From: Escherichia coli
GTDB taxonomy: Bacteria > Pseudomonadota > Gammaproteobacteria > Enterobacterales > Enterobacteriaceae
Reading direction: 5' to 3' (one strand)
Assembly (NCBI RefSeq): GCF_003334305.1
Contig: NZ_QOWS01000028.1
Length of the DNA: 49,610 nucleotides
Part shown: piece after piece, positions 44,606 through 46,230 of the stretch
Position numbering within the stretch: position 1 is the first letter of the stretch
Layout: each line of letters starts with the position of its first letter
Notes under the pieces: generated by a model
Told to the model about the DNA's origin: nothing
Database searches by the model: none
What the model saw: only the letters and a program-made list of their open reading frames with translations
Made by a program: the position numbers and the translations under genes

Positions 44606-45448
44606 TCAGGCTGAGAGCACAGAAGGAAAGTACCTGGCTATTATATCGTTAATTCTGTCAATCAGTTCCAGCCTTTTGAAAGTGATGTGTGCAGATCCCT
44701 TCTTAAAGTATTTAATGATGAACATCTCGTCTTCATAGCGCTCTTTACCCTGAACGGACTGGATGTGACCATCCAGACGAATAGTGATGTTTTCCCGGTT
44801 GTCGGGGATCGGTTTGCCGCTGAACAGATGTAGCATTCTTTCCAGGTCGACGAGTCGGTCAGTCTGTTGCCCGGTGATAAGATGAAACCCCCACCGGTCC
44901 CACCTCATCAGGTTGTTGACGATAATTTTACTGCCAAATTTGCAGGGGCAATTGGTTTTGTAATTCCAGCTCAGTCCCCTGAAGACGTTGATCACCCCTC
45001 GCTCAAACACCTCATCCTTGTTCTGGTGTAGTTGTTCAAATGTGCTCAGAATGTTCGCTTCACTGATTTCCGGAAAATTATCGTACTCCAGTGACCGGTA
45101 CCATGTATCACGGGCCTGTGCATCCATTAAGGAAAGCATCCCTGAACGTTGCATCAGGTCACGCCAGATTTCGCGATCGAGATTGCGTGTGATGGCTTTC
45201 ATTGCGGTTTCCGGTTTCTCCATCAGCCAGCAGCCGCAGCGAAAATCCTGTTTCATGGCCCAGTCCGGGGCGGCTTTACCGCCAATACTTTCTGTCATTG
45301 CTGATATTTCAGCCAGTTGCCGGATAAGTGTGTCGATTTGCAGCAGTGTACTCTTTCGTACAGCCAGAATGTGGCGGATACTGGTTGAGCAGATAACGTC
45401 CGTATGCCCGGTGACCACTTCCGGACGGGAGATTGTGATGTCTGACAT
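44606..45448 (-). CDS. DUF4942-like protein (280 aa), island cargo
   Basis: Intact ORF; recognised from memory as the conserved protein found downstream of CbtA-type toxins in CP4-like elements. Confidence 0.75.
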   Translation of the reverse strand: MSDITISRPEVVTGHTDVICSTSIRHILAVRKSTLLQIDTLIRQLAEISAMTESIGGKAAPDWAMKQDFRCGCWLMEKPETAMKAITRNLDREIWRDLMQRSGMLSLMDAQARDTWYRSLEYDNFPEISEANILSTFEQLHQNKDEVFERGVINVFRGLSWNYKTNCPCKFGSKIIVNNLMRWDRWGFHLITGQQTDRLVDLERMLHLFSGKPIPDNRENITIRLDGHIQSVQGKERYEDEMFIIKYFKKGSAHITFKRLELIDRINDIIARYFPSVLSA

Positions 45449-45532
45449 TATCGGTTTCCCTTTTGGTTTATAAACGAAAACGCCAGCCCTGTTCAGGCTG
45501 ACGTCAGTGGAATGAAGTATGGTGAGTGATAT

Positions 45533-45730
45533 TTACCGGTTCTGGTGCAGAAGCTGCAGATGACGAAGAGTACGGACATCCTCCCGGGCCTGTTCGATAC
45601 AGGGCAACAGTGCTGCCGAATCCGTTTTATCCTCATCGTTGTCAAAGATAATTCCCGATTCGCAGTCGATATTGTCCTGCAGCCACGCAATGAGGATATC
45701 CAGCGCTGTTTCAGTGATTAATGATTTCAT
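45533..45730 (-). CDS. Small DUF957-like protein (65 aa)
   Basis: ORF trimmed to MKSLITETALDILIAWLQDNIDCESG...; family name from memory. Confidence 0.65.
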   Translation of the reverse strand: MKSLITETALDILIAWLQDNIDCESGIIFDNDEDKTDSAALLPCIEQAREDVRTLRHLQLLHQNR

Positions 45731-45741
45731 GTTGTTTCTGG

Positions 45742-46230
45742 TTACCAGTTGAAAGTAGGTAAACCCGGCAGGCATTCAGCGCTGGCATCCAGATGAATGA
45801 GACTGACGCCATAACGCCGGATAAGTGTGACAACCAGACGGCGGAACATTTTTGACAGCCCCAGGCGTTTAAGCCGCAGAACCGGGTATGACCACGCATC
45901 GGTACGTAACAGATATCCGCTACCTGTAAAATGAATCCATTCTGATTCGCCGAAGTCACTGGTCTGGTGTGACAGCGAGTACAACCAGGCGTTGTCTATT
46001 TCCGTGATATGTGCGGTGCTGCAGCGTATGCCGGTAAGGGTTGTTAACGGTGGTGGTGTGCAGGTTGACTGTTGGTCGGAGTCGTCCACCACACGGAGTG
46101 AATAACCGTTTTCAGCGACCTTGTTAATCAGTTCAGTGAGATTAACACCATCGACGTCAACGACAATTCGCCCCATGTTCAGCGCCTGCACGTTAACGCT
46201 GTCGGCTTCCAGTGTCAGGGCCAGTTTCAT
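45742..46230 (-). CDS. YeeW-like protein (DUF5983-like), 162 aa
   Basis: MKLALTLEADSVNVQALNMGRIVVDVDG... matches remembered YeeW N-terminus; its start overlaps the toxin stop (ATGA). Confidence 0.75.
   Translation of the reverse strand: MKLALTLEADSVNVQALNMGRIVVDVDGVNLTELINKVAENGYSLRVVDDSDQQSTCTPPPLTTLTGIRCSTAHITEIDNAWLYSLSHQTSDFGESEWIHFTGSGYLLRTDAWSYPVLRLKRLGLSKMFRRLVVTLIRRYGVSLIHLDASAECLPGLPTFNW

Follow-up and report, generated by a model that had tools for sequence, protein, structure and literature searches.

In bacterial conjugation, the leading region of a plasmid is the DNA that enters the recipient first, and the gene families found there include relatives of the three neighbouring Escherichia coli genes that are the subject of this report. 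These genes, encoding a YeeW-like protein of the DUF5983 family, a DUF957 protein and a DUF4942 (YdiA) protein, lie in a stretch of 49,610 nt (NCBI RefSeq assembly GCF_003334305.1, contig NZ_QOWS01000028.1; hereafter the window), between the toxin gene cbtA and the edge of a genomic island at pheV. CbtA and its antitoxin CbeA have reportedly been characterised in K-12, at the CP4-44 locus. Among the families enriched in leading regions, Samuel et al. (2024, Nature, PMC11541004) list DUF4942 and DUF5983 in a supplementary table, as families 24, 72 and 76; DUF5983/Aec77 is ranked 72 (618 members, p 6.6e-199, median position 2), a second DUF4942 family is ranked 76, DUF4942/YdiA and DUF5983 count among the largest leading-region families, and DUF905, DUF945/YubP and KlcA/ArdB are listed as well. 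The other described systems to be considered are methyltransferases: members of the TaqI/EcoKI/DarB-type adenine methylase family are normally preceded by an uncharacterised N-terminal module, as in the DarB-type methylase that follows LPD36 and acts early against restriction, and solo versions of the LPD36/DarB type occur beside transfer genes (Iyer et al. 2017, PMC5512222). The trio families, their arrangement and their enrichment in leading regions are already on record in databases and literature.

Comparison of the window with the described systems revealed that 1) the plasmid YdiA/DUF4942 proteins, like the island copy, are full-length, stand-alone proteins of 260-290 amino acids (aa), with 33-38% identity and the same invariant W, D, H and N, and the gene is the last co-oriented gene of the leading region before nikA on an IncI plasmid and the last gene before the island junction in the window; the island copy, however, is chromosomal and tRNA-integrated, has no relaxase or origin of transfer (oriT) in view, and follows a CbtA/CbeA operon, whereas the inspected plasmid copies do not, 2) the pKpQIL-type DUF5983 protein (about 109 aa, encoded two genes from traM) is homologous in the C-domain, at 30-33% identity, and shares the invariant residues H, D, W, K, R and H, but it lacks the acidic DUF5983_N domain, follows DUF932 instead of cbtA and is plasmid-borne, 3) orphan adenine methyltransferases of phages and metagenomes (Salmonella phage SSU5 gp095, phrog_6263 and metagenomic P0189) possess the same DUF4942 domain as the island protein, but in them it is followed by a methyltransferase domain of about 180 aa, which the island protein lacks, and 4) yeeW of CP4-44 in K-12 is found in the same type of locus, with cbtA (yeeV), cbeA (yeeU) and the same yeeW/cbtA overlap, but it encodes an N-domain-only stub of 64 aa, unlike the 162-aa protein of the window.

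We lean, with some reserve, towards the view that the three genes are plasmid-derived cargo for establishment or anti-defence, situated at the distal end of a conserved block, and that they probably do not belong to the CbtA/CbeA toxin-antitoxin pair. This view is preferred because of the plasmid distribution, the gene content, the orientation and the published enrichment. For the window, it means that the trio would be better read as establishment genes of a mobile element than as parts of a toxin system, so that the interpretation shifts from the toxin to the mobile element.

Homologues in the leading regions of conjugative plasmids

A tblastn search of 72,556 plasmids, for which conjugative ability was predicted, detected DUF4942 on 4364 plasmids (3998 predicted conjugative), the C-domain of DUF5983 on 2573 (2093) and DUF957 on 1341 (1226), as compared with 66 (34) for CbtA. 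Inspection of individual contexts showed that 1) in an IncI-gamma plasmid, psiB, psiA and ardA were followed further on by DUF4942, one opposite-strand gene and nikA, 2) in a pOXA-48-like IncL plasmid, DUF4942 was located among JAB, DUF1380, antirestriction and ssb genes, upstream of mobA, 3) in pKpQIL, the order was N6-methylase, DUF932, DUF5983 (109 aa), an opposite-strand SLT gene and traM, 4) in an Enterobacter MOBP plasmid, a methylase gene, an antirestriction gene and DUF957 were followed further on by DUF5983, DUF932, one opposite-strand gene and mobA, and 5) in an IncHI2 plasmid, DUF957 was found among small co-oriented genes with a methylase gene and DUF3085. The inspected copies were thus co-oriented within the leading region, in three cases no more than two genes away from relaxosome genes or oriT, and the relative order of the three families differed among the plasmids. 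No cbtA annotation was found within these plasmid stretches.

The inspected contexts and the table of PMC11541004 agree in showing oriT-proximal enrichment and co-orientation of the homologues. Furthermore, the DUF905, DUF945/YubP and KlcA/ArdB families, which appear in the same table, flank the trio in the island. Neither by the plasmid counts nor by the inspected contexts was any of the three families obligately linked to cbtA. DUF4942/YdiA and DUF5983 belong to the largest of the uncharacterised families enriched near the transfer origin, including that of resistance plasmids (pOXA-48-like and pKpQIL), and their function would bear on the survival of plasmids and genomic islands on entry into new hosts.

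Conservation of the block and selection on its genes

A conserved block of about 4.7 kb ends distally with the trio and comprises DUF932, KlcA/ArdB-like antirestriction, RadC/JAB, DUF987, CbeA, CbtA, DUF5983, DUF957 and DUF4942. The whole gene order, through to the island junction, recurs in six further E. coli islands, which are inserted at tRNA-Ser (two islands), at tRNA-Ile, beside cadC, beside kps and beside another integrase. In Salmonella, the block has the same order and is located next to proBA; in Serratia, the order is kept, but DUF5983 is of a short form and DUF957 is absent; and in a Klebsiella IncFIB/HI1B plasmid, the order is kept up to DUF957, with DUF4942 not listed. The earlier note on this DNA, which had been made from the sequence without database searches, had pointed to a fixed position of these genes next to the toxin gene in CP4-like elements. 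Such a position does hold across the CP4-like islands at other insertion sites, and the order is preserved in Salmonella and other genera as well.

Selection was estimated for the trio genes and cbtA from eight loci (the window, Salmonella and the six further E. coli islands) as the ratio of nonsynonymous to synonymous substitution rates (dN/dS), calculated by the Nei-Gojobori method and given as the median of the pairwise values. The medians were 0.13 for DUF4942, 0.17 for DUF957 and 0.19 for DUF5983, against 0.16 for cbtA, at a median dS of about 0.4; therefore, the trio has been maintained as proteins, including DUF957, which has no current Pfam family. These results indicate that the three genes are real, conserved and under purifying selection.

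Matching places were counted by megablast in 5426 complete E. coli genomes. There were 13,164 places in 4914 genomes for cbtA, 13,271 places in 4930 genomes for the DUF5983+DUF957 block, and 8,567 places in 4068 genomes for DUF4942, i.e. about two thirds of the cbtA count. Thus, about one third of the cbtA loci in E. coli are without DUF4942, which is read as loss. A single chromosome carries up to 8-11 copies of these genes. At the CP4-44 locus of the K-12-like strain inspected, yeeW is reduced to the 64-aa stub, DUF957 is left as a pseudogene fragment, and there is no DUF4942; this locus is a decayed copy, and the window carries the intact ancestral arrangement.

The DUF5983 and DUF957 proteins

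The DUF5983 protein consists of an acidic N-domain (isoelectric point (pI) 4.1) and a conserved C-domain, matching the Pfam families DUF5983_N (PF25638, 8.7e-31) and DUF5983 (PF19419, 5e-20), respectively. The invariant residues of the C-domain are H74, D79, W98, K121, R130 and H146, and it is only this domain that the plasmid copies share. A VOC/glyoxalase fold has been proposed for DUF5983 (bioRxiv 10.1101/2024.01.30.577995). Our tests found no structural likeness of the protein to glyoxalase or TflA-type proteins, and no solved fold was matched; searches of the PDB sequences with single sequences likewise gave no matches.

For DUF957, 469 homologues were found, many of them named DUF957 or Aec78, and no family in the current Pfam-A was matched, though the name is still used by NCBI. 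In the list of open reading frames (ORFs), the gene reaches 45775 (80 aa), with the frame being open for 15 codons upstream of the ATG (45731-45775) and overlapping the 3′ end of DUF5983; databases also hold "extended" versions of 80-114 aa. A 2026 preprint describes AntiFam ANF00264 as a small ORF family that is located directly downstream of, or fused to, DUF5983 and is always next to cbtA/cbeA, predicts a confident homodimer for it, and proposes a fusion by programmed frameshift (bioRxiv 10.64898/2026.06.09.728211). Judged by its position, ANF00264 is probably DUF957.

The entry in AntiFam bears on another explanation, in which the trio would have no function and would be carried along, or be decaying, at the edge of the island, with DUF957 being either a spurious ORF or produced by a frameshift in DUF5983. 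It agrees with this explanation that the trio is truncated or lost in K-12, that about a third of the cbtA loci have lost DUF4942, that DUF957 has no current Pfam family, and that ANF00264, which appears to cover the position of DUF957, calls it a frameshift artefact. However, the dN/dS values of the trio are like that of cbtA, and the proteins are conserved in full length across genera and onto plasmids. In addition, the stop codon of DUF5983 is kept in all eight loci, and the frame of DUF957 relative to DUF5983 is offset by 2 in five loci, by 1 in two and by 0 in Salmonella, so that a fused or frameshifted product is not a conserved feature. The explanation is largely refuted by the selection and frame analyses, and we regard it as very improbable.

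The programmed frameshift fusion of DUF5983 and DUF957 was also considered in its own right and was rejected, on account of the varying offset and of a stop codon that is found three codons upstream of the DUF957 ATG in one locus. Whereas the preprint proposes a fusion by frameshift, DUF957 at the locus of the window behaves as a cistron of its own under purifying selection.

Relationship to the CbtA toxin

By contrast with the plasmid counts, DUF5983 and DUF957 track cbtA at nearly 1:1 in E. coli chromosomes, and a rival explanation is that DUF5983, particularly its acidic N-domain, and perhaps DUF957 are extra components of the type IV CbtA/CbeA system, acting as a second antitoxin, a regulator of the toxin or a second effector. 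As had been noticed before, the ATG of DUF5983 overlaps the cbtA stop codon (ATGA, 46230-46227; 4-nt overlap); DUF5983 is read from this as translationally coupled to cbtA, and the overlap is kept in E. coli, Salmonella, Serratia and the Klebsiella plasmid. Such coupling, together with the nearly equal counts, would be expected of an accessory component of a toxin-antitoxin system. The stub kept beside cbtA in K-12 corresponds exactly to the N-domain, and, among the loci examined, DUF5983_N was detected by Pfam only in cbtA-adjacent copies. A survey of toxin-antitoxin systems also names DUF5983 as a recurrent downstream "partner" of CbtA (PMC10790755), and the ANF00264 preprint likewise places its family beside DUF5983, always next to cbtA/cbeA.

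Against this explanation, plasmids with DUF957 or with the C-domain of DUF5983 number in the thousands, as compared with 66 for CbtA; on the inspected plasmids there is no cbtA near DUF5983 or DUF957, and the gene order is different; and the cbtA-adjacent DUF5983 of Serratia is without the N-domain. Operon coupling is, moreover, common among unrelated genes of mobile elements. The CP4-44 locus of the K-12-like strain has neither an intact DUF5983 nor an intact DUF957, although CbtA/CbeA of K-12 is said to be the characterised pair. An accessory toxin-antitoxin role for DUF5983 (especially its N-domain) and DUF957 is possible, but we consider it doubtful.

Beside the coupling, the nearly 1:1 counts and the restriction of DUF5983_N to cbtA-adjacent copies, several results weigh against reading the trio as plasmid-derived establishment cargo. 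No oriT or relaxase is annotated in the block (part of the island lies outside the window, and the search of it was not exhaustive), comparison of the non-coding DNA of the island with six plasmid oriT regions gave similarity in coding regions only, and the similarity between islands at different insertion sites stops inside or just after DUF4942. For these reasons, it is gene content that carries the analogy with a leading region. In addition, the literature search for an experimental function of the trio families returned only listings.

The functional link with the toxin, which the earlier note had derived from the fixed position, stands in so far as the E. coli counts and the DUF5983 overlap are concerned, and falls short in that the families are far commoner on plasmids than CbtA. 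As to its suggestion of a second effector or immunity function specific to the toxin, this is not the best reading in view of the plasmid counts of all three families, the lack of a cbtA annotation and the differing gene orders in the inspected plasmid contexts, the lower count of DUF4942 in E. coli, the conserved hairpin and T-run that part DUF4942 from the toxin operon, and the state of the CP4-44 locus. No defence model of PADLOC was matched by any of the 9 proteins of the block, and an NCBIfam scan of the same nine proteins returned nothing for the trio.

It was also observed that CbtA of the window matches positions 271-335 of phrog_23459 (649 positions), and that a small leading-region "N-6 DNA methylase" matches positions 396-648 of the same family. 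The two matches mean that there are proteins in which a CbtA-like part is fused to a methylase, in agreement with the polyvalent proteins described by Iyer et al. (2017).

The DUF4942 protein

The 280-aa protein matched Pfam PF13708 (2.6e-66) with residues 87-275, aligned to model positions 1-189 of 190, and this was the sole Pfam domain detected. In a library of 1.84 billion representative proteins, 2073 relatives of DUF4942 were found; the top 150 were mostly stand-alone proteins of 255-300 aa, and four had a length of 460-468 aa. In these four (P0189, P0199, P0210 and P0262), DUF4942 is followed by a methyltransferase domain with FxTP, LEPSAGxG (motif I) and NPPF (motif IV), and Pfam recognised both DUF4942 (1e-59) and MTS (2.4e-6) in P0189. 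The same layout was observed in SSU5_095 (561 aa; DUF4942 6.5e-19) and phrog_6263, and in phage genomes the domain occurs mostly within proteins annotated as methylases, such as SSU5_095. The methyltransferase part of the fusions matched the methyltransferase region of giant phage proteins (PHROGs) and, weakly, M.TaqI (E 0.06), and as judged from its sequence it fits the TaqI/EcoKI/DarB family (Iyer et al. 2017, PMC5512222). By these comparisons, DUF4942 is the N-terminal module of phage adenine methyltransferases of the TaqI/DarB type, and the island copy is a stand-alone form that lacks the catalytic domain. The architecture, an N-terminal module and a TaqI/EcoKI-like methylase, is analogous to that of LPD36 with the DarB-type methylase; however, DUF4942 did not match the giant DarB-like PHROG families that were matched by the methyltransferase part, there is no helicase, and the domain is not demonstrably LPD36.

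Sequence reading and Pfam revealed neither an S-adenosylmethionine (SAM)-binding motif nor NPPY/F, the signs of an adenine methyltransferase, in the 280-aa protein, which stops at the limit of DUF4942, the point from which the fusions carry on with their methyltransferase domain. Because of this, the label "restriction methylase" carried by some DUF4942 entries is unfounded for the island protein.

Structure prediction and remote-homology search had been suggested in the earlier note for this protein, and they were informative in part: a confident model was obtained, but no solved fold was matched. The AlphaFold2 model, which was built on 92 sequences, had a predicted local distance difference test (pLDDT) value of 88.8 and a predicted template modelling (pTM) score of 0.82, and shows a long helix at the N-terminus, a bundle of helices formed by residues 79-160, and a C-terminal unit with two copies of a three-stranded beta element plus helix. 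W95, D201, H254 and N267 were invariant in the alignment of stand-alone proteins and are also visible in the fused sequences. PDB sequences were not matched by DUF4942 either with the single sequence or with the 92-sequence family profile, and among the 50 matches listed by Foldseek for the model against AFDB50 there were only members of the DUF4942 family and methyltransferase fusions. A beta-beta-alpha (HNH-like) arrangement of H254 and N267 was considered and rejected, as the histidine is on the wrong strand and no nuclease was retrieved. From the architecture, recognition of DNA or of a partner would be the most plausible biochemical role. No functional study of DUF4942, PF13708 or ydiA was found in the literature searches.

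Distant homologues of DUF4942 (30-42% identity) were located on a KorA-IncC-KorB plasmid near a C5 methylase gene, near N6/N4 methylase genes, and beside a Toprim primase gene with RadC; cbtA was in none of the contexts of these homologues that were examined. In an alternative explanation, DUF4942 would act in trans as the targeting or specificity subunit of a methyltransferase that is encoded separately, by the plasmid, the island or the host; as the split counterpart of the fusions found in phages, it would direct protective methylation of the element. The existence of fusions with methyltransferase domains of the TaqI/DarB type, the four invariant residues that stand-alone and fused proteins have in common, the C5 or N6/N4 methylase genes near distant stand-alone homologues, and the richness of leading regions in orphan methylases are all in line with such a role. 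On the other hand, the conserved block contains no methyltransferase gene in any of the nine chromosomal island loci, there is no adjacent methylase in the IncI and IncL contexts of DUF4942, and the methylases that do neighbour DUF4942 are of differing classes, which suggests co-location and not partnership. We therefore regard a targeting subunit as quite unlikely.

Transcription layout and a possible role in establishment

The GC-rich hairpin and T-run between DUF957 and DUF4942 (Table 1) has a folding term of -17.5 kcal/mol, is kept in E. coli, Salmonella and Serratia with 2 compensatory base pairs, and is followed by a Shine-Dalgarno-like AAGG and then the start codon of DUF4942. This suggests that the cbeA-cbtA-DUF5983-DUF957 unit ends or is attenuated at the hairpin and that DUF4942 may be expressed separately. 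The cbeA-cbtA mRNA probably also serves for the translation of DUF5983 and DUF957, as indicated by the 4-nt overlap and the 11-nt gap that follows between the DUF5983 stop and the DUF957 start; across the loci, this gap ranges from 11 to 36 nt.

If the trio is indeed establishment or anti-defence cargo, the block could be the chromosomal-island counterpart of the leading region of a conjugative plasmid, and all three proteins would act on arrival of the element in a cell or on its activation there. DUF4942 would then be made by read-through of the hairpin or from a weak promoter of its own, and our best guess is that it may bind incoming DNA or the restriction-modification machinery of the host, thereby protecting the DNA. 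The data show the homology, the gene order, the purifying selection, the distribution and position on plasmids, the domain fusion and the lack of a catalytic domain, whereas we infer when the genes are expressed, any role in anti-restriction or DNA binding, and whatever activity DUF5983 and DUF957 may have. In an extended and, in our opinion, unlikely form of this proposal, the CP4-type block would be a plasmid-derived leading region that is still functional, DUF4942 (YdiA) a methyltransferase-less DNA-recognition factor for anti-restriction or DNA protection, and the N-domain of DUF5983 a part recruited to tune CbtA during establishment. If this is true, tRNA-associated islands of E. coli enter new hosts as conjugatively mobilised DNA.

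Coordinates of the block and the island edge

The positions of the three genes and of the neighbouring features are given in Table 1. The three ORFs reported in the earlier note between the CbtA toxin and the island edge are present as described, and their assignment as YeeW-like, DUF957-like and DUF4942-like agrees with Pfam, RefSeq and the named homologues. Strain A7 of E. coli carries a 100% identical locus, to which RefSeq assigns the same three annotations.

Table 1. Positions of the three genes, the remainder of the conserved block and adjacent elements in the window
Feature	Position	Strand	Remarks
DUF5983/YeeW-like gene	46230..45742	minus	162 aa; ORF; Pfam PF25638 + PF19419; RefSeq WP_000761717.1
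DUF957 gene	45730..45533	minus	65 aa, acidic, pI 4.4; separate cistron; ORF; RefSeq WP_000838536.1
DUF4942 gene	45448..44606	minus	280 aa; ORF; Pfam PF13708; RefSeq WP_001280499.1
cbtA toxin gene (context)	46604..46227	minus	ORF; RefSeq "TA system toxin CbtA family protein"
cbeA/YeeU-family antitoxin gene (context)	47062..46694	minus	Start according to RefSeq annotation
DUF987 gene	47357..47136	minus	Upstream part of conserved block
RadC/JAB gene	47902..47426	minus	Upstream part of conserved block
KlcA/ArdB-type antirestriction gene	48403..47918	minus	Upstream part of conserved block
DUF932 gene	49313..48495	minus	Upstream part of conserved block
GC-rich hairpin + T-run between DUF957 and DUF4942, terminator- or attenuator-like	45479..45505	minus	Scan match and conservation
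pheV tRNA-Phe 3′ end remnant, 22 nt = att repeat, island edge	44474..44495	minus	Read from sequence

A remnant of the 3′ end of the pheV tRNA-Phe lies about 110 nt beyond the DUF4942 stop codon, and is followed by a hairpin terminator (44437-44465) and then by the convergent gspM/yghD. Island-free E. coli strains, in which yghD and tRNA-Phe are present, match the window only up to about 44495, and because of this the remnant is taken as the edge of the pheV island. No complete tRNA gene was found within the window, and the remnant is presumably one C shorter than the 3′ end of tRNA-Phe. The terminator hairpin beside it is common to the convergent yghD/gspM.

In the E. coli islands inserted at tRNA-Ser or tRNA-Ile, the DUF4942 end borders on a complete tRNA gene, the 3′ end of which faces the island, whereas in the window this end borders on the tRNA remnant; the orientation of the block relative to the intact tRNA gene thus differs between island families. 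An AbiEii/DUF6088 toxin-antitoxin pair, with the toxin gene frameshifted, is located between DUF4942 and the island edge in an O25:H4 E. coli island (locus positions 3255-4576).

Just downstream of the DUF4942 stop codon, the best sigma-70-like match of the region was found (TCGATA-17-TATAAT, 10/12, 44558-44586, minus strand), which is directed outwards over the att remnant; at 44571-44592 there is an inverted repeat, TCCCTTT-N8-AAAGGGA. At the other end, a strong terminator-like hairpin with a 13-bp stem (49353-49382, minus strand) lies directly upstream of DUF932, at the start of the conserved block, and in strain A7 an IS3 element is found after this hairpin, beyond the position matching the end of the window. 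In the rest of the window, the region from about 27800 to 44325 carries the complete type II secretion beta cluster (sslE, pppA, gspS2, gspC-L and yghD/gspM), which in K-12 is truncated next to pheV.

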